The notes under the pieces are model-generated. The model saw nothing but the letters and a program-made list of their open reading frames with translations. It did no database searches and was not told the DNA's origin. DNA of 64,000 nucleotides from Fidelibacterota bacterium (lineage in GTDB: Bacteria > Fidelibacterota > Marinisomatia > Marinisomatales > UBA1611), in the NCBI GenBank assembly GCA_016784605.1, contig JADHUI010000001.1:27543-91542 (forward strand). Reading direction: 5' to 3'. Shown piece by piece: positions 1-40,004 of the stretch. The translations under genes and the position numbers were made by a program. Each line of letters opens with the position of its first letter. The stretch's first letter is position 1.

Positions 1-1009
1 AGCTAAGTTCTTTTTTTAAAAAGGTGTCCGACTTGTTTAAGACAATAACGCGCTTAACATCAGTAGTATCAACAGGATACGACAAACTATCTATTACGCG
101 CAAAACCAAGTCAGCGGTTTCAATTTCCTCAACAGATCGATTAACGCCGTCCGACTCAATGACGTTTTCTGTGTTTCGAATTCCAGCAGTGTCAACATAG
201 CAAACAGGTATTCCACCTACAACAGTATTTACCTCAATTGTGTCTCTTGTGGTGCCGGGGATATCACTTGTTATTGCTCTGTTTTTTCCAAGCAACACAT
301 TTAACAGTGTTGATTTTCCAACATTCGGAACGCCTGAAATAACAACTCGAGCGCCCGACGATAAAATCCTCCCATCGTGGTAGGTTTTTAACAAACCATT
401 AAAAGCGTCTAATACTGACGCCAGTAAAGAATAGGCTTTTTCGAGTCTGTCTTTGTCAGCCTCATCTTCAGACACGTCCAGCTCAAACTCCACTAAAGAT
501 AAAGCTTCTACCAAGTCTTTGCGAAGGTCTGTGAGCTTATTGGATAAAGCACCCCGCACCAACCGCACGTTTAATTTAGCCGCATCAAGCGACCTTGAGT
601 GAATTAGCGATGCGACGGACTCCGCCTGAATTAAATCAAGTTTTCCGTTTAAAAAAGCACGACGAGTAAATTCGCCCGGGTCCGCAAGCCGACACCCAAA
701 ATCAACACAAAAAGAAACAAGAGAAGAAACAATAGCCGGGCTTCCATGACAGGATATTTCAATAATATTCTCTCCCGTATAGGAGTTTGGCGCACAAAAA
801 AGCGTTACAACAACATCGTCAAAAGGGTCGCCGTCAGGCGCTACGATTAATAATGTTGTGGCAACGCGATCAACAAGAGGGTTTGTTTTTATTCTCGGAA
901 TAAGCTTTTCAGCGACAGGTATTACACCATCACCGCTCATTCGCACAACCGCTAAACCTCCAAAGCCAAAAGGCGTTGATGGCGCAACAATCGTATCTGT
1001 TGGGAACAT
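1..1009 (-). CDS. mnmE: tRNA modification GTPase MnmE (TrmE), N-terminal ~336 codons; the 3' end lies beyond the window edge
   Basis: Absent from the ORF track because it runs off position 1. My minus-strand translation from ATG (1009-1007) reads MFPTDTIVAPSTPFGFGGLAVVRMSGDGVIPVAEKL. G1 motif VVISGVPNVGKSTLLN is at about 296-343 and G3 motif VDTAGIRNT at about 172-198. The start overlaps the yidC stop by 1 nt (TAATG). The yidC-mnmE synteny is typical. Confidence 0.9.
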   Translation of the reverse strand, partial: MFPTDTIVAPSTPFGFGGLAVVRMSGDGVIPVAEKLIPRIKTNPLVDRVATTLLIVAPDGDPFDDVVVTLFCAPNSYTGENIIEISCHGSPAIVSSLVSFCVDFGCRLADPGEFTRRAFLNGKLDLIQAESVASLIHSRSLDAAKLNVRLVRGALSNKLTDLRKDLVEALSLVEFELDVSEDEADKDRLEKAYSLLASVLDAFNGLLKTYHDGRILSSGARVVISGVPNVGKSTLLNVLLGKNRAITSDIPGTTRDTIEVNTVVGGIPVCYVDTAGIRNTENVIESDGVNRSVEEIETADLVLRVIDSLSYPVDTTDVKRVIVLNKSDTFLKKELS

Positions 1010-23140: not shown

Positions 23141-25668
23141 ATCCACCAAAACGCGAACCGCCATCTGATTACCAAAAGGTAGTTGGCTTAAAATATCAAT
23201 TATATAATTCAATATTTCTGACGCTTCCTTTAGGAGGCATCAAAGATATTGGTGTTCTTATTCCAATATTAACGGATGTTTGTCGAAATAAATTATCCAA
23301 AGGCGAATCCCCAAAACAGATAATAGACACTTTTTTAAAAGAACAATTCAAAAATAAGAACGAATCAGATTCGTTTGATTTTTTATTTCGTGTTATTCAA
23401 TTCATAGAGCGACAAGTTGTTCTTATTGATGCTTTAGAAGATGCAACTTTTGAAACATTAAACAATCTTGATGGCGATGGGTCTGTTACAGATTTATTAT
23501 CCAGAACAAGCAGGGAAAATAAAAAGAATAAACTTGAAAACAGTTTAAGCCAATTTTCCATCCGCCCCGTTTTAACCGCCCATCCAACACAATTTTATCC
23601 GGGTCGCGTATTAGCCATTATTACAGATTTAACCGATGCAATTGCTAAAAATGATATTGATTTAATTCACACCTATTTAATGCAATTAGGTATGACGCCA
23701 TTTTTTAAAAAGAACAAACCATCGCCCTACGATGAAGCGGTAAACCTAACGTGGTATTTACAAAATATTTTTTATAGTTCTGCCGGGAATATTGCCACTT
23801 CTCTCAGAAAACATTTATCCAAAAAACCGGGTTACATTCAATCAATCCAACTTGGGTTTTGGCCTGGCGGGGATCGAGACGGCAACCCTTATGTGAATAC
23901 AACAATTACATTAAATGTGGCTCGCCGATTAAAAGAAACGATTCTAAAATGTTATTATACCGATATTCGGAAAATTCGTCGACGCATTTCCTTTTCTGGG
24001 GTGTATGACAATTTGCTCAAGATTGAACAAAAAATCTTAAAATGCATTCGGGGTCATGATTTATGGTCTGCGCAAGAATTATTGGATGAATTGCATATTA
24101 TTTTAAATGACATTAATACTCACCATAATGGCGTCTTTAAAGATTTAATGGAAGATTATATTGATCGAATCTCCATGTTTGGGTTTTATTTCGCAACACT
24201 CGATTTTAGGCAAGACAGTAGCATCATTAAAGAAACAATAAATCAACTATTGCCGAAAAAAGATGGGAAAACCATTACCGCTGAAACACTTTTTTCACAT
24301 GAATTGATAAACGATTTATCTCAATCCACAAACGACCGAATTGAGGATACGCTTCAATCGTTTCAAACCATGAAGCAGATTCAAGAATCAAACGGCGAAA
24401 AAGGAAGTCATCGATACATTATTTCAAATTGCCAAAGCGACAAAGATGTAGCAAGCGTATTCTTTATCGCAAAACAAACCGCATTTCAAAATGGACCAAT
24501 GCCCGTTGATTTTATTCCATTATTTGAAACAATTAACGATTTAAATAATGCAGAACAAATCATGACAGCTCTTTTGAACAATAAAGATTACTTAAACCAT
24601 TTATCAGAACGGGGAAATAAGCAAATTGTTATGCTGGGGTTTTCTGATGGCACAAAAGATGGTGGTTATTTAAGCGCCAATTGGAACATGTATAAAGTAA
24701 GAAAACAATTATCTAACCTTTCCGAGCGACTAGGAATACACATTGTTTTCTTTGATGGTCGCGGCGGCCCGCCCGCCCGCGGTGGTGGAAATACCCACAA
24801 TTATTACGCATCTTTGGGACCCAAAATTGCTTCGACCGAAATTCAACTTACGGTTCAAGGGCAAACGATTTCGAGCAAATTTGGAACCAAAGAATCTGCT
24901 CGTCTAAACTTAGAACAACTATTAACCGCAGGTCTAGATAATTTACTTTTTGACGATCAACACAAAAAACTTTCAGAAGAGAATTATACCCTTTTAGAGC
25001 ACATGAGTTCAACAGCTTTAAAGACATATACAGAATTAAAAAACCACCCACTCTTTACATCTTTCCTTGTTGATATGTCTCCATTAAAATATTACAGCAG
25101 AACCAACATTGGGTCTCGCCCAGACAAAAGAAATGAATCTAACGAAGTAGAATTTCAACAATTAAGAGCCATCCCATTTGTGGGCGCATGGTCCCAAATA
25201 AAACAAAATATCCCGGGGTTTTATGGTTTAGGAACGGCACTTAGAGAGATGGAAGAAAACGGAAAACTAAACGAAATAATACAACTTTATTCAGAATCTC
25301 GGTTTTTTCGAGCTCTAATTGGAAATTCAATGCAAAGTATGTGTAAAACATATTTTCCTTTAACCGACTACATGAAACACGACCCTACTTACGGCGAATT
25401 TTGGGTAATTCTAAAAGAAGAATATGATTTAACTGAACGATTAATTTTAAAAGTTTCAGGTCAAAAAGAATTACTGGAAAACAATCAAAATATTAAAGAA
25501 TCAATTGCATTAAGAGAAGAAACGGTACTTCCTTTGTTGGTTATTCAACAATATGCCCTTATGAGATTAAGAGAAAACGACCTATCGAAAGATCAAATAA
25601 ACATACTGGAAAAAATGATTGTACGCTCCCTATTTGGGAATATTAATGCATCTAGAAATTCGGCTTAG
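23137..25668 (+). CDS. ppc: Phosphoenolpyruvate carboxylase (843 aa, short FCB-type)
   Basis: Conserved PEPC blocks VLTAHPTQ, GFSDGTKDGG, FDGRGGPPARGGG and LRAIPFVGAWSQ. The TTG start overlaps the mltB-like stop (ATTGA), so the exact start is uncertain. Confidence 0.93.
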   Translation: MNPPKREPPSDYQKVVGLKYQLYNSIFLTLPLGGIKDIGVLIPILTDVCRNKLSKGESPKQIIDTFLKEQFKNKNESDSFDFLFRVIQFIERQVVLIDALEDATFETLNNLDGDGSVTDLLSRTSRENKKNKLENSLSQFSIRPVLTAHPTQFYPGRVLAIITDLTDAIAKNDIDLIHTYLMQLGMTPFFKKNKPSPYDEAVNLTWYLQNIFYSSAGNIATSLRKHLSKKPGYIQSIQLGFWPGGDRDGNPYVNTTITLNVARRLKETILKCYYTDIRKIRRRISFSGVYDNLLKIEQKILKCIRGHDLWSAQELLDELHIILNDINTHHNGVFKDLMEDYIDRISMFGFYFATLDFRQDSSIIKETINQLLPKKDGKTITAETLFSHELINDLSQSTNDRIEDTLQSFQTMKQIQESNGEKGSHRYIISNCQSDKDVASVFFIAKQTAFQNGPMPVDFIPLFETINDLNNAEQIMTALLNNKDYLNHLSERGNKQIVMLGFSDGTKDGGYLSANWNMYKVRKQLSNLSERLGIHIVFFDGRGGPPARGGGNTHNYYASLGPKIASTEIQLTVQGQTISSKFGTKESARLNLEQLLTAGLDNLLFDDQHKKLSEENYTLLEHMSSTALKTYTELKNHPLFTSFLVDMSPLKYYSRTNIGSRPDKRNESNEVEFQQLRAIPFVGAWSQIKQNIPGFYGLGTALREMEENGKLNEIIQLYSESRFFRALIGNSMQSMCKTYFPLTDYMKHDPTYGEFWVILKEEYDLTERLILKVSGQKELLENNQNIKESIALREETVLPLLVIQQYALMRLRENDLSKDQINILEKMIVRSLFGNINASRNSA
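25624..25668 (+). repeat. ppc 3'-end repeat, copy A (the functional last 14 codons plus stop of ppc)
   Basis: cgctccctatttgggaatattaatgcatctagaaattcggcttag encodes RSLFGNINASRNSA*. It shares the 29-bp core tttgggaatattaatgcatctagaaattc with copies B and C. Confidence 0.95.
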
Positions 25669-25925: not shown

Positions 25926-28900
25926 ATGAAACAATTATTTCGCCCATCAATCATTTTTTTAATTTTAACCACATTAACCCAGTTAGCTGCGCAAGTAGTT
26001 TATCCTGGCGAAGTGGATATAACGGGCACAGAGGAAGTTGTTTTTGATTATACAACAGACGCATGCTCTGAAGATGATATCCCTGATACGCCCGCACGAT
26101 TTTTTAGAGATGCAAATGGACAAATTCAAATGCTTGCGGTACATTATGTTAATTACAGATCGATCGGGTCAGACTTTGATAATTTAACACGAGACTGCAG
26201 TGCGCCAGTATTTGACTCAGACCATAACAGCAACCCAAGCACTTTTAATAACAACGAATGGTTGTCTAATTCATATACCCTTGACGGAAATACTATTTAT
26301 TCAATTGTTCATAATGAATACACACCAGACACCGGAAATGATTATTGGTATAATACTTTAACGTTTGCTACATCTACAGATGCGGGACAATCTTACACTC
26401 AAGCCGCATCACCCGACCATTATTTGGCGGGAACTCCTTACGAACTAGATACAAGCAATATACTCGGTATTTTTGGGGGAAGCTCACCGGTGTATAATGC
26501 GAATGATGGCTATTATTACGCGATGGTTCATTTGGAAGCCTATGGGTTACAAGATTGGGGAGCGGGCTTAATTCGTACTCAAGACTTAAGCAACCCAGAT
26601 AATTGGCGCGGGTGGGACGGTGAAGGTTTTAATGTAGAGTTTAAAAATCCCTATCATGATGTTATTTCGGATCCAGCAGATCATATTCTTGCGCCAGTTT
26701 CAAAAAATAAAATCGCAAAAATGTGCGGCAGCTTAACGTATAATACTTATTTTGAAAAATATATGGTAGTGGAATATGGCGAGTTTTTTGATCCACCATC
26801 TGGGCAAGCAAAATATGGATTCTTTTATTCGTTATCCGAAGATTTGATTAACTGGAGTCACCCAGTAATGATGTATGAAAGTCCGATTCAAACTTGGTGG
26901 GACGTAGGCGGTGTATTTTATCCAAATATTGTTGATCATACAGATACTACGCGAAATTTTGAACGTCCCGGAAGAGAGTGTTATCTCTATTTTACGAAAT
27001 GGAATTCCGGAACATATGACAGGGATTTGGTTCGAGTTCCAATTCGATTTAATAAAAAAGATATTTCAACAATTACAGTAAATAGCGTAGGAGATGATGG
27101 CGCAAACCATGCTTATATCGGAGATGCATCCACTGGAACTACAATTGCAAACGGCGAAGATGAAATCACCTTAAGGTCCGCCATTGAAACAATTAAAGCC
27201 TCTCCAGATACAGGCGCTACATTTACAATTAATTTTAATCTTCCCGGCGATGGCCCACACACCATTTCTCCGGGCTCCAGTTACCCAACATTAACAGGTT
27301 CAATGATTATTGATGGATTCTCTCAAGCCGGAGCCGTTGCAAATGCTAACAGTCTTGCTAACGGAAATAATGCGACGGTGCAAATTGAGATAGACGGAAG
27401 TAGCGCTGGGACTGACGTAAATGCGTTTGTGCTTGATGGAGCATCTTTTGCCATTAAAGGATTATCTATATATGGGTTTGATGCTGGGATTTTTATTGAG
27501 AATGGAAGTTCATCCAGCATTGAAGGTTGTTTTTTAGGATTTAATGCTCTCGGAAATCGTATTGCTGATGAGATGGGTGTAACAATTTTTAATACAGACA
27601 GTATAACAATTGGTGGAACGTCCGCTGCATCCCAAAATGTAATATCGGGTAATGTTATAATAACAGAAACGGGAGCAGAGAACAATGTAGTTTCTGGTAA
27701 TTATATTGGCGCATCGCCAGATGGAGCCACATCAATTAGTAGCGGGATGGTTATTGTTGATAATGGAGCATCGTTTAATACAATAAATTCAAATTTGATT
27801 TCCGGGTCTAGCTATAGTATTCACATTATTAATAGTAGCCTAAACACAATTCAGCAAAATATCACCGGAACAAACTCTACAGGTTTAACGGCCATTGCAC
27901 AAGGGACCATTGTTTTAACTGATAATGCAAGTCTAAACACAATTGATGATAATTTAATATCAGGGACAGGGAATGGTATTGAAATAAATCAAGACTCATA
28001 TCAAAACACAATTACTAACAATTTGATTGGCACAGATGCTAGTGGCACATCAGGCTTAAATGCAGGTTTATACGGAATTTTAGTTCAAACAGGGGCCCAC
28101 GACAATCAGATTGGAACGGTTAATAATGGAAATATAATTGGAGGGCTCACCGAGGTTGGGATTGGCTTAAATGGGGTAGATAATAATGTACTACAAGCGA
28201 ATTATGTCGGGACGAATCCTACTGGTGATAATATTTCAATTGCCACAGAAGGCATTTGGGTTGGCGGTGACTCTGAAGGGAATGTTATCGGCGGAACTTC
28301 TGCTGGAGAAGGAAATATTATAACCAATAATGGCGGTTCTGGGATAAGCCTATCTGGATTAACCGGACAAGGGAACGCTTTTCTTGGTAATGCAATTTAT
28401 AATAACGGACTTTCAGGTATTGGAGATATGACAGAAATTGATGTCCCCAGACCCGATATTGTAATAGCAATGAGTCAGAATACTACGCTTGATATTATTG
28501 GAAATATATCTGGCGAATCGAACTCAACGTATCGAATAGAGCTATTTAATAATTCAGAATGTGACGCATCGGGATCTGGTGAAGGAGAAACTTTTCTTGG
28601 GTTTATCGATGTGACCACAGATGCAAGCGGCATTGGCTCTATCAACGAAACGATTAATGCGAGCGTTGTGTCTGGTGATATTGTTACCGCAACGGCGACA
28701 GGAGAAAATAACAGTACATCTGCCTTCTCAGACTGTGTTGATGTTTTTAATAATGTTGATGCTCCCACAATGACTTTATCTGGGTCAACTTTTTCATTTG
28801 ATTTTCCATCATTTATTCAACCCATAGCTTCTGCAGATATAGTTGTAACAAATTCGGGCGCTTATGAGTTAGAATGGGAAGGAAGTTCAAACGCAGATTG

Positions 28901-31900
28901 GCTGACATTGAGCCCAAACATGGGAACAACATCAGCGGGCGCTGAATCAGAAATAGGATTAAATGTTGACTTATCGGATTCTTCCGTTGGTACGTATTCA
29001 GCTTTAATTACACTTAATTCTAATGACTATCTATTACCATCACAATCAATCTCTATGACTATTCATTATGGTACGGGCGGCCCGACAAACATTTCACATT
29101 CACCAGATACCGTTTTTGTAGATGTTTCTGAAGGTCCAGATACACCCGCGTCATTTTTTATGCTCAACATTGGGAATGAAGCTGTTGATTGGACCGCAGG
29201 GTTTACTGGTATTAATTGGGTTAATAGCGTAACACCTAATAGCGGCTCCACATCTCCTGGAGATTCCGTCGAAATATTTTTTAATGTTCGCCCCGCTAAT
29301 TTGCAACCCGGTGAAAATTCTGGTCTTGTCTGGGTAAGTTTAAACCCCGAATTAACGCAAGTCATGGAAGTACCAGTCATGGCAACATTACTCGTACCTT
29401 CAATATCTGTCTATCCAGAATCAATTGAAGAAGACTTTGAGCCAGTAGCGTCAGACCCAACGCTTTCTTTTCAAATAATGAATACAGGTGACGCAAATTT
29501 AATATGGACAGTTGATGATTTTATTGGGAACAATTGGACGTACTCTTTCAACCCATCTTCAGGCGCAACGCCCCCAGGAGACTCTACAACGATTTCATTT
29601 AACGTGAGAATTAACAGTCTTGATGAAGGGTTAAATACGGGCATTATTCCTATTTCATCAAACGACCAAAGCGCATCAACTCTTCAAATCCCTGTTACTA
29701 TAAATTATACATCTAACTCAGCTCCAAACCCAGAGCTAACGATTGATTCACCTTTAAATAATGCTACTTTTTTCTCATCAGATGTGAATATACATTTTTC
29801 TGCACAAAACTTTAATATTGGCGCAGAATCTGACTCAACAGATGGGCACCTTCATTACCAGTTAAATAACAATGATCCTGAAATGCATTATAGTGAAAAC
29901 GCGGTTCAATTATCTGGGCTTTCGCTTGGTGAACAAACAGTCATTTTATGGTTGGTAGATCATAACCATAATTCATTAGAGCCTCATGTAGCAGACACTG
30001 TTTTATTTACAATTGAAGAAGCGGACGAACTTTATAATCCTTATGATGACGTATCTTATGATTTAATATTATTGGAGTCAATTTCTGGAGACAATATTAA
30101 TGGTTCAAATAATTTCTTAAATAGAATGCCTGAAGATGCTATTATGGTTTACGAGACGAATGAGGGTAGGTTTGGGAAATTACAAATTGGTCATTATGGA
30201 GAAACGTTAACATTGGCTTGGAGCACATACGATGATTCTGGTCAAATCTATTCATCGGGAGAATCTCTCGTTGTGAGTGATGGGGTAGCTGTCGATTTAG
30301 ATGAAGGAGGCATAACAACAGACGAAAGCGCACAAGATTTCTCATGGGATGTAGTTAATGCAATTGATCGGTGGTTCAATGTTGAAAATTCAGCGCAATT
30401 TGGGTTATATGGGTATTGGGGTATTACTCGACAAATGGTGCAAAACCAATCTGGAAATTTATCAAATGCTAATATAGCCGCTGTAGATGAAGGTGAAAAT
30501 AATTTAGAAGATGGTCAGGTTTTGCTTTATCGAACAAATCAAAACAGGTACGGAAAACTTCAGGTTGAAGAATATGGACCCGCATTGCGGATTCGGTGGT
30601 GGACATATAACAATCAAGGCAATATACACTCTATGGGAGACAGTCTTGTTATTGCAAGTAATGCATCTTGCGATTTAGAGATGGGACAACAAACCCCAAA
30701 CAACTCCCCTCATCGTGATTTTTACTGGGAGCAAGTATCCCCAGGTGAAATGTATTTAGTGCCTCGTAATGCGTCGCAATTTGGCGTTTATTCACCAAAT
30801 CATGCTCCAACAGCAAACGATCAGTATTTTGAAACCAATGAGGGAACTTCTGTAGAAATTGTTTTGAATGCAGTCGATGTAGATGGGGATGATTTAATGT
30901 ATGATATTAACGAATGGCCACAGTACGGCTCCCTGTCAGGCACACCTCCTTCTTTTGTGTATGCCCCCAACCCAGAATTCATCGGTGGAGACCAGTTTGT
31001 TTATACAGTTACAGATGGAGAGCTATCTAGTTCGGCAACGGTTTATATTTCAGTTATAGATGGCGGTGGTAATAATAGCGCTCCAGAATTCAATAATTTT
31101 TCGGATTTAGATATTGTTGAAGATTCAGAAGAAAACAGTGTTTATGAAATTTCTGCTAACGATCTTGATGGCGATATGTTAACATTTTCATTGAGCTCTA
31201 ACAACGAATCTGTTTCGTGGGCTGATGAAGGGCAAACAAATACATCTCAGCTTTTTAGATTAGTCGTTTCACCTAATTGGTATGGTAGCGCTGTTTTTAC
31301 GGCCATTGTTTCTGATGGGGAATTAAATGATACATTAAATTTTAATGTAAACGTAACCCCTGTAAACGATTCGCCTACGGCCTCTGATTTAACAATTGAA
31401 ACACAGGAAGATATACCTGTCGCATTTGATTTTATTGGAAACGACATTGATGGTGATGAACTAACATTCATCATTGTCAGCAACCCACAGCATGGCACAC
31501 TTAATGATGGTGTTTATTCGCCCGCAGAAAATTATTTTGGAGAAGACACTTTTCAATATGCTTCACATGATGGAACCGCCAACTCTGAACCGGCAACTGT
31601 GATAATTACTGTCACCCCAATAAATGATTCACCAATAGTTAATGATTTAGAAATTACTTGTTTAGAAGATAATTCTGTTGAAATCAGCTTAGATGGAACC
31701 GATGTTGATGGAGACGATTTAACTTTTAGTGTTTTAACGCCACCAGGACATGGCACATTTAATAATGGTGTTTATTCGCCCGCAGAAAATTATTTTGGAG
31801 AAGATACTTTTACATTTACAGCTTCCGATGGAATTGAACTTTCCAATGAAGGTGTTGTGACAATTGAGGTTGAATCAATCAATGATGCGCCAGAGCCATT

Positions 31901-32537
31901 TGAGTTGCTGTCTCCCGTAAACACTCATACTATCTCAATTTCCAACGCCACCTTTAATGATACTCTTCGATTTAAATGGACAACATCTCACGATATTGAT
32001 AATGATGAAATAACATATGATTTTGTCGGTGAAGGTTCATTGGCGTTATTAGAAAACAGTCTCATAGCAGATAGCGATACAAGTGTGTGGATTTTATATT
32101 CAACGCTTGCCAATTATGTTGATTCATTGAGTGTTATTCAAGGCGATTGGTCTGCCATAGCGATAGATTTACAAGATTCAACCTTAGCTACGAATGGTCC
32201 TTTTTCTTTAACAATTGATTTAAATGAACTTTCTATTGATGATATAAATGAAATTCCGAGTTTATTTGCATTACACCAAAATTATCCAAACCCATTTAAC
32301 CCAACGACAACGCTTCGATATGATTTACCAGAAGACACCCATGTTCAAATTGTTATTTACGATATTATGGGGCAACAAGTTAAAACGCTGATCAATGAAG
32401 AGCAAAATGCTGGCTTTAAAGCAGTTGTTTGGGATGCGACAAATCATATTGGGCAGCCAGCGAGTGCGGGGATGTACCTATATCATATAAGTGCGGGAGG
32501 ATTCAACAAAACGATAAAAATGGTTTTATTGAAATAG
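25926..32537 (+). CDS. Giant secreted T9SS cargo protein (2203 aa). Domains: N-terminal Asp-box-containing domain, right-handed parallel beta-helix (PbH1) repeats, Ig-like domains, two copies of an unknown ~100-aa domain, cadherin-like/VCBS-type repeats, and a T9SS CTD
   Basis: Signal peptide MKQLFRPSIIFLILTTLTQLAAQ. One Asp-box (STDAGQSY). NxIxGNxI-type beta-helix repeats at about 27500-28400. Repeats of INDSP...DVDGDDLTF...HGT...GVYSPAENYFGEDTF (258-bp period around 31350-31870). CTD FALHQNYPNPFNPTTTLRYDL...GMYLYHISAGGFNKTIKMVLLK. Confidence 0.85.
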   Translation: MKQLFRPSIIFLILTTLTQLAAQVVYPGEVDITGTEEVVFDYTTDACSEDDIPDTPARFFRDANGQIQMLAVHYVNYRSIGSDFDNLTRDCSAPVFDSDHNSNPSTFNNNEWLSNSYTLDGNTIYSIVHNEYTPDTGNDYWYNTLTFATSTDAGQSYTQAASPDHYLAGTPYELDTSNILGIFGGSSPVYNANDGYYYAMVHLEAYGLQDWGAGLIRTQDLSNPDNWRGWDGEGFNVEFKNPYHDVISDPADHILAPVSKNKIAKMCGSLTYNTYFEKYMVVEYGEFFDPPSGQAKYGFFYSLSEDLINWSHPVMMYESPIQTWWDVGGVFYPNIVDHTDTTRNFERPGRECYLYFTKWNSGTYDRDLVRVPIRFNKKDISTITVNSVGDDGANHAYIGDASTGTTIANGEDEITLRSAIETIKASPDTGATFTINFNLPGDGPHTISPGSSYPTLTGSMIIDGFSQAGAVANANSLANGNNATVQIEIDGSSAGTDVNAFVLDGASFAIKGLSIYGFDAGIFIENGSSSSIEGCFLGFNALGNRIADEMGVTIFNTDSITIGGTSAASQNVISGNVIITETGAENNVVSGNYIGASPDGATSISSGMVIVDNGASFNTINSNLISGSSYSIHIINSSLNTIQQNITGTNSTGLTAIAQGTIVLTDNASLNTIDDNLISGTGNGIEINQDSYQNTITNNLIGTDASGTSGLNAGLYGILVQTGAHDNQIGTVNNGNIIGGLTEVGIGLNGVDNNVLQANYVGTNPTGDNISIATEGIWVGGDSEGNVIGGTSAGEGNIITNNGGSGISLSGLTGQGNAFLGNAIYNNGLSGIGDMTEIDVPRPDIVIAMSQNTTLDIIGNISGESNSTYRIELFNNSECDASGSGEGETFLGFIDVTTDASGIGSINETINASVVSGDIVTATATGENNSTSAFSDCVDVFNNVDAPTMTLSGSTFSFDFPSFIQPIASADIVVTNSGAYELEWEGSSNADWLTLSPNMGTTSAGAESEIGLNVDLSDSSVGTYSALITLNSNDYLLPSQSISMTIHYGTGGPTNISHSPDTVFVDVSEGPDTPASFFMLNIGNEAVDWTAGFTGINWVNSVTPNSGSTSPGDSVEIFFNVRPANLQPGENSGLVWVSLNPELTQVMEVPVMATLLVPSISVYPESIEEDFEPVASDPTLSFQIMNTGDANLIWTVDDFIGNNWTYSFNPSSGATPPGDSTTISFNVRINSLDEGLNTGIIPISSNDQSASTLQIPVTINYTSNSAPNPELTIDSPLNNATFFSSDVNIHFSAQNFNIGAESDSTDGHLHYQLNNNDPEMHYSENAVQLSGLSLGEQTVILWLVDHNHNSLEPHVADTVLFTIEEADELYNPYDDVSYDLILLESISGDNINGSNNFLNRMPEDAIMVYETNEGRFGKLQIGHYGETLTLAWSTYDDSGQIYSSGESLVVSDGVAVDLDEGGITTDESAQDFSWDVVNAIDRWFNVENSAQFGLYGYWGITRQMVQNQSGNLSNANIAAVDEGENNLEDGQVLLYRTNQNRYGKLQVEEYGPALRIRWWTYNNQGNIHSMGDSLVIASNASCDLEMGQQTPNNSPHRDFYWEQVSPGEMYLVPRNASQFGVYSPNHAPTANDQYFETNEGTSVEIVLNAVDVDGDDLMYDINEWPQYGSLSGTPPSFVYAPNPEFIGGDQFVYTVTDGELSSSATVYISVIDGGGNNSAPEFNNFSDLDIVEDSEENSVYEISANDLDGDMLTFSLSSNNESVSWADEGQTNTSQLFRLVVSPNWYGSAVFTAIVSDGELNDTLNFNVNVTPVNDSPTASDLTIETQEDIPVAFDFIGNDIDGDELTFIIVSNPQHGTLNDGVYSPAENYFGEDTFQYASHDGTANSEPATVIITVTPINDSPIVNDLEITCLEDNSVEISLDGTDVDGDDLTFSVLTPPGHGTFNNGVYSPAENYFGEDTFTFTASDGIELSNEGVVTIEVESINDAPEPFELLSPVNTHTISISNATFNDTLRFKWTTSHDIDNDEITYDFVGEGSLALLENSLIADSDTSVWILYSTLANYVDSLSVIQGDWSAIAIDLQDSTLATNGPFSLTIDLNELSIDDINEIPSLFALHQNYPNPFNPTTTLRYDLPEDTHVQIVIYDIMGQQVKTLINEEQNAGFKAVVWDATNHIGQPASAGMYLYHISAGGFNKTIKMVLLK

Positions 32538-32614
32538 ACTATTTAATACATTATTAATAGAGAAAAGGCATTCTTGACGTTTGCCTTTTCTCTAAATGAA
32601 AGCGCTATAAAAAG
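32271..32614 (+). repeat. 345-bp direct repeat, copy 1: CTD-coding 3' end of giant gene 1 plus downstream hairpin (partner at 39588-39932)
   Basis: Manual alignment to 39588-39932 gives 8 substitutions and one 1-nt indel over ~345 bp (about 97-98% identity). The two copies are offset by 7317 bp. Confidence 0.95.
32559..32593 (+). terminator. Conserved hairpin downstream of giant gene 1 (putative terminator)
   Basis: Perfect 12-bp stem agagaaaaggca / tgccttttctct with an 11-nt loop, 22 bp after the stop. An identical copy lies at 39876-39910. There is no clean trailing U-run (the T-rich tract is inside the 3' arm). Confidence 0.55.
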
Positions 32615-32622
32615 CCACTACT

Positions 32623-32667
32623 CAGCCCTTCTTTGGGAATATTAATGCATCTAGAAATTCGGCATAG
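32623..32667 (+). repeat. ppc 3'-end repeat, copy B (orphan fragment between the two giant genes)
   Basis: cagcccttctttgggaatattaatgcatctagaaattcggcatag would read QPFFGNINASRNSA* in frame. From ttt (32632) onward, the 36 bp match ppc with a single substitution (gct to gca) and keep a TAG stop. No ORF leads into it. Confidence 0.9.
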
Positions 32668-32755
32668 AGTCTAATTTCGATTTATCTTTAATAAGATATG
32701 ATAGGCTGTAGCACTGTCCAAAATAAATTAGATTTTTCATATTTTAGATAAATCC

Positions 32756-32800
32756 ACCTGACCGCCCTGGCGATAACCTGTGCTGTTAGTCAGGTTTTTT
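32756..32800 (+). terminator. Orphan intrinsic-terminator-like hairpin inside the ORF-free spacer
   Basis: acctgac ... gtcaggt outer stem enclosing a small cgc/gcg inner stem, followed directly by TTTTTT (32795-32800). It lies ~90 bp after ppc remnant B, and no annotated gene ends here. Confidence 0.45.
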
Positions 32801-33166
32801 ATCATATTTCAAAAACAAACCCCCAATGAGCGCGATAGAGGCTCTATAAGTGGAAGTTTGAGTCAATATTACCAAGAGATGATTTTATGGACCCACCCCT
32901 AAACAAACTCGGGATTTACATTTCGCCCAAACTTTGATTTCCCCCTTTTCTTTAAACCCCAACTACACCTTCCCCGCAACGAGGAAGACTTTAATGTAAT
33001 AGGAAGAAAACAGCCAAAAACATCCGAATATTTTCCCCTGTAATAGGGGAAATACAAAGGGGTCATTATAATATTTATTACACTTTTACAAAACGTTTTG
33101 GACAGACGTGAACAGGTCCATTAAAACTTTTATAGAATTTGTGTTTTTATTATTAATTAAGTAAAA

Positions 33167-33206
33167 TAGACAGTTAGACAGTTAGACAGTTAGACAGTTA
33201 GACAGT
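33167..33206 (+). repeat. Perfect tandem repeat (TAGACAGT)x5 upstream of giant gene 2
   Basis: Five uninterrupted 8-bp units at 33167-33206, followed by TTTTTT. The repeat ends 64 bp before ATG 33270. Confidence 0.95.
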
Positions 33207-33269
33207 TTTTTACTTGTTAGGGCGAGGAAAAACTGCTCAATTTACAAACAAACGAGAAGAGAGAATCCC

Positions 33270-36200
33270 ATGAAATACGTACAGTATTGTCTTATATCCA
33301 TATTTTTTATCCAAGTTGCTTTTTCAGCAAGTGTTAAAGATAACCCCAGAAAAAAACAACAGAGCAGAAAAACCGAAATTCCTGTAGAAAGGGTAAGAAA
33401 AAATCACTCTGAGGATATAGATGCGCCAAAAGTTAAACCTACCCGAGAAGATGATCGTGTATCAAAAGTACAACAAATTAAAGATGGCGTTATTTCGATC
33501 CAGGATGTATTTACAATAGAGACGCCCCAGACGCGTTCTGTAACAAACTTTACCGAATATACTGTTTGCTCTGTTGGGTGCGACTATGATGATGTTATGA
33601 CCGCAATTAATAGTGTTCCAAGTTTCTCCACCATTTTCATTTCTGAGCCGGGCACATATTATGTGTCTGATATACAATTAGAAGAAAAATCTATTTGGAT
33701 TCGCGGATTAAGCCCAGAAGAAACAATTTTAACAGGAGAAAACCCAGACGGACTAGACTCGAATCTTGTTTATTTTGAAAAATTAGATTATGCTGATTGG
33801 ACTCTTGAAGAAAACCAAGACAGAATTGCAGACAGTGTTTGGATTACCCGCGGCGACAATCAACCCATCTTTAATGCTGCTGTGGAAGCGTATAATGATA
33901 CAGACACCGATCTTACGCCTACAAATACATTATGGGCGCAGGGCAGGACGGCGGATGTGGACTCATCTGATTATGAAACTTTCGCACCCATGACAGGCTG
34001 GTGCCCGCCGTGTATTTTAGGCCAAACATTATCTCTAAAGCTCCCCGGTGCGGGTGAAGATAGTTCGGATGTTTTTTATGACCTGGTTATTACACAATGG
34101 ACACAAAATGGTGCAGGCGGAGGATTCGCTTATTATAGAGGAGAGCCAGGAGTATCTCTACCACTCTCTGCTACAATGATTTCCCTTTCCGATTCGAGTG
34201 AAAATGATACAATTTCATATTTACAACTTTCAGATTTATCTATTGTTGATGGGTCGGGTTCGAATGGAAGCCCGGGTGGTATTTTAATTGATGAAAATAC
34301 GTATGATTCAACCACGGTTGTATTTGAAAATGTACACGGCACAAATCATAGCGGCGGGTTTTTAAGATCTTATTCTAACAACACTGCCATTTATATTAAT
34401 AATTCCGAATTTTTTAATAATAACTCATCTAATGATGGGGGTGTTATTTATTTAGATTTTGGAGATTTAAATATTAATAATTCCGAATTTTTTAATAATA
34501 ACTCATCTAATGATGGGGGTGTTAGTTATTTAGATTTTGGAGATTTAAATATTAATAATTCCGAATTTTCCAATAACACAACTAATGGCGATGGAGGTGT
34601 GTTTTACATAGATGATGGAAATTATAATATTAATAATTCCGAATTTTCCAACAATTCATCTAATGATGATGGAGGTGTTATATATCATTATGACGCCGAA
34701 GGCATGATTCTGAATAGTGCTTTTACACACAACTCATCGGGAGATGACGGGGGTGTTATAAATAATGAGAGTGGTGACTTATACATCGGGAACTCTCATT
34801 TCTCTGAAAATGAAAGTTCATATGGGGGTGCTATATATATGGATTACGGCGACGATTTTGTCACTTTTAACACTTCATTTGAAAATAATATCGCAACATC
34901 GTCTGGAGGCGCCATTTACATTGAAGAAAGCGCAGATGGGTACTTTTATCAAACACATTTTCACGAAAATATGTCGGGAAATGAAGGTGGCGCTTTTTAT
35001 ATTGAAAATTATGAAGATGATTTTGATATTTCGGTAGAATTTCATTCTTCATCTTTTGTAGAAAACATAGCCGAAGGAGACGGTGGTGCCATTTTTTCTT
35101 ATGATGATTATGATGGGCGTATTAAAATTTATTCATCTGTGTTTGATGGCAATTCATCGGAAAGCGATGGAGGCGCAATCTATATTGACGATGATGGCGA
35201 ACTTTGGATAGAAAATTCTTCATTTGTTAGGAATTCAGCCGGGGATGATGGTGGCGCTATTTATAATGATGATGCAGATTCTCCTGGCGTTATAATGATT
35301 AACACAACAATCGCTAATAATAGCGCATCAGACGAAGGTGGTGCCATTATAAATGATGATTATTTGTTTTTATATAACTGTACAGTAGCATTTAATGATG
35401 CAGGATATGATTATGGAGGTATTGACGATGTAGACGATATGAGTTCCACAGTTATTGCTCAAAACACTGTTACGGGAGACGATTATTCCTATCCGGATGT
35501 AGACTATGCTTACATTAGCGAACGCAATATTATTGGAAATATTGGAGAAGGGTCAATTTATATATACAATGATGTGTATGGCGACTCCTGGATTGGAAAC
35601 CCCGATTCGTTGGGGACTATCGATTCAGTTGCAATAGCGCACGGCGTGGTTGTTTATGATACACCAATTAATGCTCAACTTGCGTTTGTTAATGATGAAC
35701 CATTACCCTACATGATTCCTTATCCCGGTAGCTTAGCCATTGATAATGGAATAGACTGGTATAATTGGGATGATGAATATGTAACGGTTAATTATGATAT
35801 GCTAGGAAGACCGCGAAGCTGGCCTTATAATTCAGATATTGGAGCAATTGAACGCACCCCAGGAGATCCCCACGAAGACCAAATCGCACCTGGAACAATT
35901 GATGATTTAGCAGGGGCGCCATCTATTGAAGGTGGTATCCAACTATCATGGACTGCTGTTGGTTCTGATGGAAATATAGGAACAGTGGCGGAATATATGG
36001 TTTATTACAGTGCGAATACATTTGAAGATCCTAGCGAATCTACTGTAATGGGAATCAACCCCGGAATCAACCCAAGTCAGTCAGGCACAAATGAATCTTT
36101 TCTACTAGGTGGGCTTGATTATGGATCGGCTTATTACATCCGCATCATTACATTTGATGAAATTGGTCAACCTTCGGACTTGTCCAATGAAATTGCTGTT

Positions 36201-39200
36201 GAAACATTAAACGCGCCGAGCGTGGCTGTTTCTACAACAAGTGCATCGATTACTCTTCCTGCAGAATCAGAAGGTACGCGTCAATTAACCCTAGGGAACG
36301 ACGGTCAAAGTCTTTTAGAGTGGAGCGCCACAATTCTTACGGAAGATACTTCATCTGTAAGAAGCTCAAGCCCCGTATTTGGCACGGGAACGCTTAGTGA
36401 CCTTGAAAAAAGCGCATCAGATTATGTGAACCACCCTAGGCCTGAAAACTTATTTTCAGATGAGTCTTTTCCTCTCGACCCACACATGCAAAGTGTGTTA
36501 TCTAGTCGAATAAATGCCAACCCTTTAGAAAACATTCTTTCAATGTTTGAAGAAAAACATCAAACCATTATTGATCTAGTGCCAAATCCGTGGGTTATTG
36601 AAGATGGCGTAACCGGAGATAATATTAACGACGGTGGGGACGATATGTACGATGGGGGAAATTATTTAAGTACAGATAACGAACAAAATCCACTTGCATA
36701 TTCAGATAGTGTTATTATTGCCAGTAGTCATTTAGGAGAAACAGGTCAGTATTTTACACGAAAATATGATGAATTGTTTGTTTTCGCTGCCGATCTAGAT
36801 TCTGTAAGCGATTTTTATATTACGGGGAATCTCGGCGCAGATGGAAGTGGAAGTGTTGACGGTATTATTGTTGAAGAGAGCGGGTATACCGGGTTTGTTA
36901 AGCGTGTATATAATGCTGGCGATCCTTCTATTAATCATATGGTCATTATTCAAAATACAGAAGGAGCCAGTCATGATTTTTCTACAGATACAAATAATGA
37001 CTATCACCATATTGGCGGTTTAATCAATGTTACACAACTATATTATATATTGTATGCCAGTAGCGGCGGGGCGCTGGTTGACGATGAAACAACATTAAGT
37101 ATTATGAGCGCTATGCTTGATATAATTGACCCAACATGGTTGCATGTTTCAGAAAATCAAGGCGAAATCCTTCCCGGCGAAACACAATTAATCGAGATAT
37201 TGTTTAATACAACAGAGTTAGCGGATACAAGCTTAGCAGGATTAATTACCCTAACGACTAATGACCCCAATGTAGCAGAAATACCTATCGATGTAAGTAT
37301 GGTTGTTTCTAGTGAAAACCTATCTCCGGTATTGCATACAGCTCAATTATCAGACGCGATAGAAGATGAACCTTATTTATTCCAGCTTGTAGGGGAAGAC
37401 CCTAATGGTGACACTATTCACTATACATTGGTTGATGGACCCAGCTGGATGTCAATATCAGAAAGTGGCGAAGTTACAGGTATGCCGACAAATGAAAACG
37501 TGAGTGATTCGGACACACTTTCAGTTAATTTAAACGACGGAACAGTGGATATATCTTTTGGTATGACCGTGACTGTGATTAATAGCAATGATAGTCCTTT
37601 TGTTCTAAATGGGTTTGAACCCGTTGTTGTTAATGAAGATTCAGAGCCAATAACGATTGATCTTTCTCAAATATTTAGTGATGATGATATGAATATTGAG
37701 TTAGACTCGTTAATCTACCTAGCGGAAGGTTTTATGACTTTTCGAAAGGAAAATAACGCAGATTGGACCCTTGAAGAAAACCAGGATCGCGTAAATGATG
37801 CAGTGTGGATAACAAGAAAAAACAATCAATCTATATTCAATATTATGCGAGAAGATGGTTATTCTCAAGCAGATGGTAGCCCTCAAGGCACGGAATGGTC
37901 CCTTGGTTATGCGAGTCAATCAAACGAACTTATGTTTGAGCCATTTATATCGGCAGTAAGTAATTCTCCGCAAAGCTCAATCGGAAAACCGCTAGTCATG
38001 CATACTGTGGATGATAACCATTATTATAATATGATGATTCATCAATGGACGGGCGGAAATAATGGCGGAGGACTTGCTTGGACGCGCTCTAGTGTAGAAA
38101 ATAATGATACGCCTATTGCAACTCCTGAAATAAATGGATCAAACCTAACCATTTATTTCCATCCAAACGCTTTCGGAGAAACTGAATTGGTTATTCTTGC
38201 CATAGATGAATCGGGAGAAACTGTTGCTGATTCTTTAAGCATAATGATAAACCCAGTAAACGATTTACCTGGAGATGTGGCATTGCTACACCCAGCGGAT
38301 AATTCCACCATTTCGATTCTTAACCCAACATTATCTTGGGAAGAACCAATCGATTTCGAAAATGGCGAAACATCTGGAAGTAGCAATGATCATTTGGTTA
38401 AAAATACTCAAACTCAATCTAATTCACGTTCCATTGCAAGTTATAATGTGTATGTAGGTACTGACACTGCATTAACTGCAGAAGATTTTTTAGAGAATGT
38501 GGCAATAAATTCATATACCATCTCCAGCGATTTGGTAGATGATGCTACATATTTTTGGATGGTAGAAGCGGTGGATGATGATGGGGGTATTTCAACTTCA
38601 GACACATGGTCGTTTACAATAAACACAGGGAACAATCCACCATCATCTTTTGAGCTTGTTTCACCTTCTCCAGAATTAGTTTTGTATTCAACGGATGTCA
38701 CTTTTGAATGGATGCCGAGTTATGATCCAGACCCAAATGACAATGTTCATTTTGCGCTTAACGTGAATTCTGATACGTTACACCTTCATTATGAAACAGA
38801 TTCAATATCGTACTTAGCGTCTCAATTCCAGGATAATAAAGTATATCATTGGTCTGTAGATGCTTATGATAATTATGGCGCGATGGTACAAAATATCGGC
38901 GGACCACGTATGTTTGTGGTAAATACCGCAAACGATAATCCATCATCCCCAGAATTAGTTGCTCCTTTAAGCGGAAGTATACAGACAAACCTTATGCCAA
39001 GCTTTTTCTGGACTCGATCACACGATATTGATCCTATGGATCATGTATCATACGAGTTAAGTTGGCAACAAATTGGAGACGCGTTAAATCCGCATATTAT
39101 AAATACGGATAGTAACGGAGTTTCCCTCGAAGAAAACCTTGAAGATAATTCATCTTTTATTTGGTCAGTAAGAGCAATGGATTTGAATAACGGCGAATCA

Positions 39201-39854
39201 TTAACGGATACGATGCATTTTTATACAGACGCATTTCCAGAACCCCCACTTGCCTTTGTGACACTTTCACCGGAGAATGAAGCAACTGGCTTAGGAACGG
39301 AAGTTGAATTTGTTTGGGCCGAATCAATTGACCCAGACCCAATTGATGACATTCATTATCAGCTTGTTTATGCTACAGATTGGCAAGATAGCAGTACATA
39401 CGTTTTCAGCGAAAACGTTCAAGATACATCCTTAATAATTTCAATGGAAAATAATACATTATATTATTGGGGAGTAATTGCTCGGGACAATGATGGGTTT
39501 ATGGTTGGAAGTAACGATAATACCCCAAACACAATGGTGATTGGTACGCTGGGGATTGATGACCAAGCGATACCAGATGCTTTTGCCTTACACCAAAATT
39601 ATCCAAACCCATTTAACCCAACGACAACGCTTCGATATGATTTACCAGAAGACACCCATGTTCAAATTGTTATTTACGATATTATGGGGCAACAGGTTAA
39701 AACACTGATCAATGAAGAGCAAAATGCTGGCTTTAAAGCAGTTGTTTGGGATGCTACAAATCATATTGGGCAGCCAGTGAGTGCAGGAATGTACTTATAT
39801 CAGATAAGTGCGGGAGGATTCAACAAAACGATAAAAATGGTTTTATTGAAATAG
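33270..39854 (+). CDS. Giant secreted T9SS cargo protein (2194 aa). Domains: Pmp-type (GGA[IV] / FxxN) beta-helix repeats, a duplicated unknown DWTLEENQDR domain, FN3/Ig-like and cadherin-like domains, and a T9SS CTD
   Basis: Signal peptide MKYVQYCLISIFFIQVAFSAS. More than 12 repeats of the form F.(E/N)N.(A/S)...(D/E)GGAIY (e.g. FENNIATSSGGAIYIEE, FVENIAEGDGGAIFSYD, FDGNSSESDGGAIYIDD), the hallmark of polymorphic-membrane-protein repeats. CTD FALHQNYPNPFNPTTTLRYDL...GMYLYQISAGGFNKTIKMVLLK. Confidence 0.85.
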   Translation: MKYVQYCLISIFFIQVAFSASVKDNPRKKQQSRKTEIPVERVRKNHSEDIDAPKVKPTREDDRVSKVQQIKDGVISIQDVFTIETPQTRSVTNFTEYTVCSVGCDYDDVMTAINSVPSFSTIFISEPGTYYVSDIQLEEKSIWIRGLSPEETILTGENPDGLDSNLVYFEKLDYADWTLEENQDRIADSVWITRGDNQPIFNAAVEAYNDTDTDLTPTNTLWAQGRTADVDSSDYETFAPMTGWCPPCILGQTLSLKLPGAGEDSSDVFYDLVITQWTQNGAGGGFAYYRGEPGVSLPLSATMISLSDSSENDTISYLQLSDLSIVDGSGSNGSPGGILIDENTYDSTTVVFENVHGTNHSGGFLRSYSNNTAIYINNSEFFNNNSSNDGGVIYLDFGDLNINNSEFFNNNSSNDGGVSYLDFGDLNINNSEFSNNTTNGDGGVFYIDDGNYNINNSEFSNNSSNDDGGVIYHYDAEGMILNSAFTHNSSGDDGGVINNESGDLYIGNSHFSENESSYGGAIYMDYGDDFVTFNTSFENNIATSSGGAIYIEESADGYFYQTHFHENMSGNEGGAFYIENYEDDFDISVEFHSSSFVENIAEGDGGAIFSYDDYDGRIKIYSSVFDGNSSESDGGAIYIDDDGELWIENSSFVRNSAGDDGGAIYNDDADSPGVIMINTTIANNSASDEGGAIINDDYLFLYNCTVAFNDAGYDYGGIDDVDDMSSTVIAQNTVTGDDYSYPDVDYAYISERNIIGNIGEGSIYIYNDVYGDSWIGNPDSLGTIDSVAIAHGVVVYDTPINAQLAFVNDEPLPYMIPYPGSLAIDNGIDWYNWDDEYVTVNYDMLGRPRSWPYNSDIGAIERTPGDPHEDQIAPGTIDDLAGAPSIEGGIQLSWTAVGSDGNIGTVAEYMVYYSANTFEDPSESTVMGINPGINPSQSGTNESFLLGGLDYGSAYYIRIITFDEIGQPSDLSNEIAVETLNAPSVAVSTTSASITLPAESEGTRQLTLGNDGQSLLEWSATILTEDTSSVRSSSPVFGTGTLSDLEKSASDYVNHPRPENLFSDESFPLDPHMQSVLSSRINANPLENILSMFEEKHQTIIDLVPNPWVIEDGVTGDNINDGGDDMYDGGNYLSTDNEQNPLAYSDSVIIASSHLGETGQYFTRKYDELFVFAADLDSVSDFYITGNLGADGSGSVDGIIVEESGYTGFVKRVYNAGDPSINHMVIIQNTEGASHDFSTDTNNDYHHIGGLINVTQLYYILYASSGGALVDDETTLSIMSAMLDIIDPTWLHVSENQGEILPGETQLIEILFNTTELADTSLAGLITLTTNDPNVAEIPIDVSMVVSSENLSPVLHTAQLSDAIEDEPYLFQLVGEDPNGDTIHYTLVDGPSWMSISESGEVTGMPTNENVSDSDTLSVNLNDGTVDISFGMTVTVINSNDSPFVLNGFEPVVVNEDSEPITIDLSQIFSDDDMNIELDSLIYLAEGFMTFRKENNADWTLEENQDRVNDAVWITRKNNQSIFNIMREDGYSQADGSPQGTEWSLGYASQSNELMFEPFISAVSNSPQSSIGKPLVMHTVDDNHYYNMMIHQWTGGNNGGGLAWTRSSVENNDTPIATPEINGSNLTIYFHPNAFGETELVILAIDESGETVADSLSIMINPVNDLPGDVALLHPADNSTISILNPTLSWEEPIDFENGETSGSSNDHLVKNTQTQSNSRSIASYNVYVGTDTALTAEDFLENVAINSYTISSDLVDDATYFWMVEAVDDDGGISTSDTWSFTINTGNNPPSSFELVSPSPELVLYSTDVTFEWMPSYDPDPNDNVHFALNVNSDTLHLHYETDSISYLASQFQDNKVYHWSVDAYDNYGAMVQNIGGPRMFVVNTANDNPSSPELVAPLSGSIQTNLMPSFFWTRSHDIDPMDHVSYELSWQQIGDALNPHIINTDSNGVSLEENLEDNSSFIWSVRAMDLNNGESLTDTMHFYTDAFPEPPLAFVTLSPENEATGLGTEVEFVWAESIDPDPIDDIHYQLVYATDWQDSSTYVFSENVQDTSLIISMENNTLYYWGVIARDNDGFMVGSNDNTPNTMVIGTLGIDDQAIPDAFALHQNYPNPFNPTTTLRYDLPEDTHVQIVIYDIMGQQVKTLINEEQNAGFKAVVWDATNHIGQPVSAGMYLYQISAGGFNKTIKMVLLK
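34395..34706 (+). repeat. Four in-frame 78-bp tandem repeats (26-aa Pmp-type units) inside giant gene 2
   Basis: Units at 34395, 34473, 34551 and 34629. Units 1 and 2 differ at one nucleotide (INNSEFFNNNSSNDGGVIYLDFGDLN versus ...GGVSYLDFGDLN). Units 3 and 4 are more diverged. Confidence 0.9.
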
Positions 39855-39932
39855 ACTATTTAATACATTATTAATAGAGAAAAGGCATTCTTGACGTTTG
39901 CCTTTTCTCTAAATGAAAGCGCTATAAAAAAG
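39588..39932 (+). repeat. 345-bp direct repeat, copy 2: CTD-coding 3' end of giant gene 2 plus downstream hairpin (partner at 32271-32614)
   Basis: See copy 1. Includes the identical hairpin at 39876-39910. Confidence 0.95.
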
Positions 39933-39940
39933 ATGTTTTT

Positions 39941-39985
39941 CGCTCCCTATTTGGGAATATTAATGCATCTAGAAATTCTGCATAA
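39941..39985 (+). repeat. ppc 3'-end repeat, copy C (orphan fragment before the dioxygenase-like gene)
   Basis: cgctccctatttgggaatattaatgcatctagaaattctgcataa encodes exactly RSLFGNINASRNSA*, like ppc. The only differences are tcg to tct, gct to gca (both synonymous) and TAG to TAA. No ORF leads into it. Confidence 0.95.
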
Positions 39986-40004
39986 AAGCACCTAGCTTTT
40001 CCAT

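Follow-up and report, generated by a model that had tools for sequence, protein, structure and literature searches.

Tuning of adhesin genes by tandem repeats is textbook knowledge for small-genome, host-adapted pathogens. Here we describe a perfect octanucleotide tandem repeat, (TAGACAGT)x5, at 33167..33206 of a 64,000-nt stretch of a Fidelibacterota contig (JADHUI010000001.1, positions 27,543 to 91,542; the whole stretch is hereafter called the window). The repeat precedes a gene for a 2194-amino-acid (aa) giant protein with repeats of the polymorphic membrane protein (Pmp) type; all features of the window described below lie on the forward strand. A comparable case is uspA2 of Moraxella catarrhalis, in which an (AGAT)n tract of the 5' untranslated region (UTR) reportedly sets the expression level by its copy number, as Attia and Hansen are said to have found in 2006. 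Our repeat, which is probably also part of a leader, likewise precedes the gene for an adhesin-like protein, but uspA2 reportedly has a tetranucleotide unit, many more copies and a trimeric autotransporter as its product.

The closest described systems are the hmw1A and hmw2A genes of Haemophilus influenzae. In nontypeable strains, the 7-bp repeat (ATCTTTC)n is transcribed in the 5' UTR and is inversely related to expression; the tracts comprise at least 11 units and, by pairing with a G-rich region, form a long hairpin that RNase III cuts (PMC12721329). In biogroup aegyptius, an octanucleotide, (GCATCATC)12-15, is found in the putative promoter region (PMC3309571). Our locus resembles these genes in that a 7- or 8-bp unit of strain-variable copy number lies directly 5' of a gene for a very large secreted adhesin or adhesin-like protein (PMC12721329, PMC3309571), and the candidate promoters P1 and P2 (see below) suggest that, as in hmw1A, the repeat is part of the transcribed 5' UTR. 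It differs in that the units number three to five, a complementary arm is missing and the only hairpin is short and local. The secretion route and the host also differ (two-partner secretion in a human pathogen versus type IX secretion in an uncultured marine bacterium), as do the unit and the phylum, and the effect on expression, proven for hmw, is putative here.

Two further systems have repeats of other unit lengths. In Neisseria meningitidis, the (TAAA)n repeat of nadA, a distal promoter tract, lies between conserved regulatory elements and its length modulates rather than abolishes expression (PMC2791445). Our locus shares the position of the repeat upstream of an adhesin-like gene and the conserved elements on both sides; however, the nadA repeat is a tetranucleotide located upstream of the -35 element between NadR operators, with an involvement of IHF (PMC2791445), whereas in our case the downstream promoter candidate is weak (P3, 7/12) and no repressor or operators were identified. 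The (GAA)n repeat of the Mycoplasma gallisepticum vlhA genes is variable, lies ~40 nt upstream of the lipoprotein-gene promoters and controls which gene is expressed (PMC6258824). It is likewise a variable repeat upstream of surface-protein genes, but it is a trinucleotide in a multigene family in which one specific copy number is needed for expression; here we find a single locus and an 8-bp unit. Repeats with units of 6-9 nt have rarely been reported (PMC4692102). By analogy, the locus can be placed in the known class of repeat-bearing adhesin genes (hmw1A/2A, nadA and uspA2).

Octanucleotide array and its unit number in related genomes

Tandem Repeats Finder called the array at 33167-33207 (period 8, 5.1 copies, 100% matches) with a score of 82, the highest among the short-period arrays of the window. 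The immediate context is aaaa(TAGACAGT)5TTTTTACTTG, with AAGTAAAA as the 5' neighbour and TTTTTACTTG as the 3' neighbour; the final T of unit 5 and five more T form a T6 run. The perfect fivefold 8-bp array with T6 in front of a Pmp-like gene, described in the initial annotation, is borne out by both the sequence and the program, and the gap between the array end (33206) and the ATG (33270) is 63 nt. The array is perfect and far beyond chance expectation: the single octamer TAGACAGT occurs five times in 64 kb, always within the array (0.87 expected), and the two-unit 16-mer has four matches (0.02 expected). A scan of the window for perfect repeats (unit of 4-12 bp, at least three different bases, at least three copies) returned two arrays only, namely this one and a coding GATGGCx3 at 5303-5320. 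All six reading frames of the array contain stop codons, so it is noncoding.

For the comparison between genomes, species A denotes the species of the window and species B its sister, with 83-87% coding-DNA identity to A (about 85% nucleotide identity). The orthologous site of species B was found in contig L060 by a scan of the genome collection with 2.5 units, and carries three units inside the same flanks; the other related contigs were obtained from exact-protein look-ups, among the matches listed. In species A, the window and three independent contigs that are 99.93-99.95% identical to it (L001/L074, L073/L101 and L077) all have five units. In species B, three units are found in 10 contigs (L060, L083, L095, L097, L098, L099, L102, L103, L104 and L105) and four units in two (L096 and L100). 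The source samples are ERZ24794642, ERZ24794644 and ERZ24794654 for species A, and SAMN10231901, SAMN10231911, SAMN10231914, SAMN10231919, SAMN10231920, SAMN11854485 and SAMN11854493 for species B. The contigs L095 (JGI 3300008625) and L096, with three and four units, respectively, encode an identical 2316-aa protein (P0043) and have one mismatch in 9.7 kb of flanks; L099 comes from a different data set (JGI 3300008952). All copies of the octamer unit, in species A and B alike, have one and the same sequence. The check proposed in the initial annotation, a count of units in related strains and metagenome-assembled genomes (MAGs), thus reveals three, four and five units among close relatives with the same flanks; the copy number really varies among near-identical genomes, and the array appears to be a fast-changing repeat.

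When the 11 species-B loci that were fetched by protein look-up are aligned, single-nucleotide polymorphisms (SNPs) are found in only 23 of 9846 columns; 13 of them cluster together, and four occur in L103 alone. The contigs with four units have different SNP backgrounds (columns 3009/3011 are A/A in L096 and G/T in L100), which suggests that the four-unit allele reflects recurrent change, or recombination. As a rough estimate, the unit number of species B would change ~1000 times as fast as a single site is substituted. Two scans of JGI metagenome contigs with exact 22- and 30-nt patterns, taken from the conserved downstream flank and from the upstream flank plus two units, gave no match; as these patterns are present in JGI contigs obtained by protein look-up (for example L095 and L099), the scanned collection is incomplete for this lineage.

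The downstream giant gene and the conserved region around the array

The gene downstream of the array (33270..39854) encodes the 2194-aa protein, whose N-terminus is signal-peptide-like (MKYVQYCLISIFFIQVAFSAS). Its domain matches are Chlam_PMP (E = 1.8e-21), with the GGA(I/L/V)/FxxN repeats of Pmp proteins, fn3, and FlgD_ig/Por_Secre_tail, that is a type IX secretion sorting domain. The identical NCBI protein (MBL7012814.1, Candidatus Marinimicrobia) is named 'T9SS type A sorting domain-containing protein', and type IX sorting domains are also found on many neighbouring genes. Based on the signal peptide, the sorting domain and the sorting domains of the neighbours, the product is predicted to be a giant secreted or surface repeat protein; with signal peptide, Chlam_PMP, fn3 and sorting domain, it is the surface or secreted kind of product expected of a contingency locus. 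The label 'Pmp-like' is appropriate for the repeats but not for the C-terminus: chlamydial polymorphic membrane proteins are type V autotransporters, and although they have the Pmp repeats in common with our protein, their C-terminal barrel was not detected here, the domain search reporting the type IX match in its place. No homologue with a solved structure is related to the protein by sequence.

The flanks of the array (47 nt upstream and 63 nt downstream) are identical between species A and B at 105 of 110 nt (95.5%), with no indel. As a baseline, identity is 68-72% at the third codon positions of the three flanking genes and 79% in the next intergenic spacer, where a 40-nt indel also occurs. 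The A/T-rich block 5' of the array (33120..33166) has two substitutions in 47 nt, and the block 3' of it (33207..33269), which comprises a CA-rich leader and, at 33254-33265, the purine-rich ribosome-binding region GAGAAGAGAGAA, has three in 63 nt. Because the flanks are so much better conserved than these baselines, the array appears to be embedded in a regulatory block under purifying selection.

Three candidate promoters were considered. P1 (TGAACA-18-TAGAAT, 33109-33138) was returned by the promoter scan with 9/12 matches; its -35-like hexamer TGAACA (33109..33114) is located within a segment missing from species B, and its -10 hexamer TAGAAT (33133-33138) within the conserved 5' block. 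P2 (33139-33167; TTGTGT at 33139-33144, spacer of 17, TAAAAT at 33162-33167) has 8/12 matches and is identical in both species. Its -10 ends at the first base of unit 1, so transcription from P2 would start inside units 1-2. P3 (33214-33242; TTGTTA at 33214-33219, spacer of 17, TCAATT at 33237-33242), read from the sequence, is located 3' of the array, has 7/12 matches and lacks the A at position 2 of the -10. For comparison, the sigma-70-like pairs of other genes of the window are TTGATA-19-TATAAT, TTGGCA-16-TATAAT and TTGACC-16-TATATT. Since the best sigma-70-like candidates, P1 and P2, sit 5' of the array or abut it, the array is probably part of the transcribed 5' leader; judged from hexamers in AT-rich DNA, we consider this roughly twice as probable as a position upstream of the promoter. 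The change of promoter element spacing proposed in the initial annotation may therefore be the wrong sub-mechanism, and an effect through the 5' leader is at least as likely. Sigma-54 and Bacteroidetes-type (TTTG/TAnnTTTG) promoters were dropped by eye: species A lacks the -12 GC, and the other window genes have sigma-70-like TTGnnn-16..19-TAnnnT pairs. The TAGACA of the unit was also rejected as a -35, as no acceptable -10 is found 16-19 nt 3' of any unit.

The last unit contributes to a predicted hairpin, or imperfect palindrome, at 33201..33238, with a folding energy of -13.2 kcal/mol (z = -3.9; one of 200 shuffles is as stable). The left arm consists of GACAG of the last unit, the T6 run and CTTGT, and the right arm of GCGAG and GAAAAACTG-C-TC. 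A single substitution, on a bulged base (33212), separates the hairpin sequences of species A and B, two sequences being too few for covariation. A long repeat hairpin of the hmw type was rejected: the array has no complementary arm, and only this local 38-nt hairpin uses the last unit. No Rfam-type RNA family reached the gathering threshold across the window, and at E<=1 the region 32500-33400 gave only a chance match to a terminator hairpin. The motif TTTTTTACT, tried as a leader motif common with the neighbouring giant gene, has six matches versus 2.3 expected and is unconvincing.

Explanations for the variable array

The explanation that we favour, and to which we give about an even chance, sees in the array an octanucleotide simple sequence repeat that is prone to slippage, lies within the conserved regulatory region of the gene for a giant type IX-exported adhesin-like protein and tunes the expression of this gene. 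Strand slippage at replication would presumably add or remove whole 8-bp units, so that the unit count (three, four and five observed) would be a heritable and reversible length variable within a constrained promoter and leader. The count would most likely tune the amount of the giant protein, as a dimmer rather than an on/off switch. A changed number of units would alter the length of the leader and the position of its 5' part relative to the hairpin and the ribosome-binding site; this sub-mechanism is suggested by P1 and P2, which are upstream of the array or abut it, and by the conserved hairpin, which begins in the last unit. A regulatory role of the unit number is plausible, and the predicted product, a surface or secreted repeat protein, belongs to the class so controlled in known systems (PMC12721329, PMC3309571, PMC2791445).

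Several points weigh against this explanation. The array has five units in every assembly of the window's own species, and the species-B haplotypes are taken from metagenome consensus contigs, which are possibly chimeric. Three to five units are few for a classical high-frequency contingency locus, and the mutation rate may be far below that of such loci. The 78- and 309-bp repeats inside the gene vary too (see below), so repeat instability alone is no proof of selection for switching. Concerning the promoter, the -35 of P1 is not kept in the sister species, and promoter hexamers easily arise by chance at ~35% G+C. Concerning the leader, its whole structure is not unusual (z = -0.54), and the predicted cost of opening the ribosome site is nearly flat, at 1.4-2.3 kcal/mol for zero to eight units; because of these two results, an RNA-level mechanism is not evident in silico.

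The constancy within species A, the variation of the other tandem repeats of the gene and the independence of the predicted ribosome-site accessibility from unit number also speak for the best of the alternatives, namely that the array is a neutral variable-number tandem repeat in a tolerant part of the leader, with a copy number that has no effect on expression. The tracts are moreover short, with three length states only, and octamer arrays adjoin unrelated housekeeping genes in many phyla. On the other hand, the array lies amid the most conserved noncoding stretch of the locus (95.5% versus baselines of 68-79%), all units are identical in two species which differ at ~30% of silent sites, and 24-40 bp inserted between conserved elements are unlikely to be without effect. 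On balance we regard neutrality as somewhat unlikely.

The arrays in other phyla come from the genome-collection scan mentioned above, which gave 71 loci (L002-L072, including L060). All of them are intergenic, in that no open reading frame (ORF) of at least 120 aa spans any array. The other 70 loci belong to many phyla (for example L017, L031, L057, L063 and L050), with arrays of 2.5 to ~15 units, several of which end at contig ends. Some genomes have more than one locus: a Pirellulaceae MAG (CALKCC01) contains ~20, and Prevotella sp. RUI566 and Bacteroidales Md513_bin82 contain several each. The arrays often lie within long degenerate 8-bp satellites (TTAGACAA, TTGGACAG and TTAGCCAT). Eight of 10 sampled loci adjoin unrelated housekeeping genes (DnaE, PNPase, asparaginase, GH92), and the neighbouring ORFs of the remaining two have no Pfam match. 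In view of these neighbours and satellites, a shared role of (TAGACAGT)n across phyla was rejected as functional evidence. In six Pyrinomonadaceae/Pyrinomonadales genomes (L016, L036, L042, L046, L061 and L070), a conserved site, AACGCTATTTCCTATACCTATTATATTTTT-(TAGACAGT)3-5-CGATT, has 3.0 to 5.1 units, the number differing between species; it is a second octamer locus with conserved flanks and variable copy number, in a different phylum.

It is also conceivable, but unlikely, that the array lies upstream of the core promoter and acts as a variable spacer between the distal block 33120-33166 and the weak P3, like nadA or vlhA. Each 8-bp step would shift the distance and rotate the helical phase by ~274 degrees, both flanks are conserved, and there is a precedent (PMC2791445). 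The T6 run is found directly 5' of the -35-like CTTGTTA, other genes of the window have CTTGCGT-type -35 elements with a spacer of 17-18 nt, and a weak -10 is expected of a promoter dependent on an activator or a distal element. Nevertheless, the -10 of P3 lacks an A that is near-invariant, the promoter has better-matching competitors upstream of the array, its leader would be only ~20 nt, and full conservation, as seen in its 'spacer' GGGCGAGGAAAAACTGC, would be surprising if this sequence did no more than separate the promoter elements.

A third alternative takes the units as iterated binding sites, either of a DNA-binding regulator, as also raised in the initial annotation, or of an RNA-binding protein; the copy number would set the number of operators. 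The unit sequence is perfectly kept in both species and each unit contains TAGACA, a 5/6 match to the -35 consensus TTGACA. Against it, no copy of the octamer lies outside the array in the 64-kb window, so that the motif recurrence expected of such sites is lacking there and the octamer was rejected as a regulon motif; near matches (up to two mismatches to a 12-mer) outside the array are all inside coding ORFs. Known direct-repeat operators have periods of 10-11 or 21-22 bp, whereas a period of 8 bp places successive sites on different faces of the helix. Among the immediate neighbours, which were examined, no regulator gene adjoins the locus: the upstream neighbour encodes another giant type IX secretion protein, and the downstream one is a dioxygenase-like type IX secretion gene. 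With the octamer found nowhere else in 64 kb and a period off helical phasing, we find no support for the regulator sites and consider them very unlikely.

Lastly, although tandem repeats are prone to mis-assembly, an assembly or sequencing artefact is effectively refuted, since a sequencing read is much longer than the 24-40 bp of the arrays, each allele is found in independent assemblies from different samples and projects, and the flanks are identical in all assemblies.

Architecture of the locus and biological meaning

In species B, the PEPC gene is directly followed by the Pmp-like gene with its repeat-bearing promoter. The window has a second giant gene, of cadherin/Big_9 type (25926-32537), between the PEPC gene and this promoter. 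In strains with 98.3% identity to the window (L075 and, from JGI 3300009703, L076), only the cadherin-type gene is found, without the Pmp-like gene and the repeat-bearing promoter. The sister species lacks the cadherin-type gene, and overall there are three gene configurations at the locus. Two direct repeats of ~404 bp, which are 95-97% identical, comprise the near-identical sorting-domain ends and the identical terminator hairpins of the two giant genes. Copy 1 (32265..32666) holds the sorting-domain 3' coding end and, besides the terminator hairpin at 32558-32594, a duplicate of the ~34 nt with which the PEPC gene ends; copy 2 is found at 39582..39984. All of the 8-9 mismatches between the window and the contigs L073/L074 fall in the ~404-bp repeated region. 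Because the L075 and L076 strains are without everything between the two copies, the Pmp-like gene and its repeat-bearing promoter appear to be a strain-variable cassette, lost or gained between the direct repeats.

The last ~34 nt of the PEPC gene (TTGGGAATATTAATGCATCTAGAAATTCGGC) are found at 25640-25668, 32633-32666 and 39947-39986, and thus recur after each giant gene; in the sister species, too, a copy follows the Pmp-like gene. The pattern suggests a serial insertion of giant-gene cassettes at the 3' end of the PEPC gene, with a duplication of this end each time; no integrase was seen near the copies. Between the remnant of the PEPC 3' flank and the conserved promoter block, species A has a specific 414-bp segment (32706..33119), the right end of which supplies the -35-like TGAACA of P1. 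Its ends form an imperfect inverted repeat of ~19 bp (CTGTAGCACTGTCCAAAA / TTTTGGACAGACGTGAACAG). A miniature transposable element is unsupported, as no second copy was present in the sequences examined.

The Pmp-like gene itself contains tandem repeats. In the window, tandem repeat analysis located 3.8 copies of a 78-bp (26-aa) repeat of Pmp-type units at 34393..34685. In the species-B gene, 309-bp (103 aa) and 78-bp (26 aa, one Pmp unit) repeats, located at 3497-4058 and 4600-4775 of L083, respectively, vary in copy number between strains; the strains are 99.6-100% identical outside these repeats and their proteins have 2316, 2290, 2213 and 2187 aa.

Other giant genes were also considered. 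The statement of the initial annotation that nothing similar precedes them holds with regard to an 8-bp array, but not for repeats in general. The giant type IX secretion gene listed at 4484-9703 in fact begins at ATG 4520, a start that has an AAGGAG ribosome-binding site and is followed by a signal peptide. Its leader carries two simple tracts, a C7 run (4462-4468) and a perfect (AAC)5.7 (4490-4506). Both tracts are located 3' of a promoter-like pair, TTGCGT-17-TATATT, and 4462-4519 could be the leader of a second giant surface-protein gene with repeats. The distant homologues of the 2194-aa protein, P0005 (49% identity, ten contigs) and P0003, are located elsewhere in their genomes, and their upstream regions contain no octamer repeat of this kind. 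About 190-200 nt upstream of the start of the P0005 gene (GGTGTAAAAAAATTCGG), an A6 run in L090 is replaced by A7 in the other seven covering contigs of L084-L091, which is a homopolymer length variation 5' of another giant Pmp-like type IX secretion gene.

No paper linking Marinimicrobia with repeat-driven phase variation was found in the literature library searched. We tentatively propose, as a possibility well short of a firm expectation, that free-living pelagic Marinimicrobia use the contingency genetics of pathogens on giant type IX-secreted adhesins, hedging between attached and free-living states. Such contingency may have three layers: slippage of the leader octanucleotide, which would reset the expression level at random, changes of the intragenic repeats, and gain or loss of the whole gene between the 404-bp repeats. 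The locus offers a natural case, with three length alleles, near-identical marine genomes, a conserved block and a strain-variable giant type IX cargo gene, and the proposal is testable in existing series of ocean metagenomes and metatranscriptomes. If the unit number had no effect on expression, the array would still be a useful strain marker; if it did affect expression, this would point to a stochastic control of attachment to particles in an abundant lineage of the ocean. Should the contingency proposal be true, repeat-based phase variation would be a general ecological strategy beyond host-adapted bacteria.

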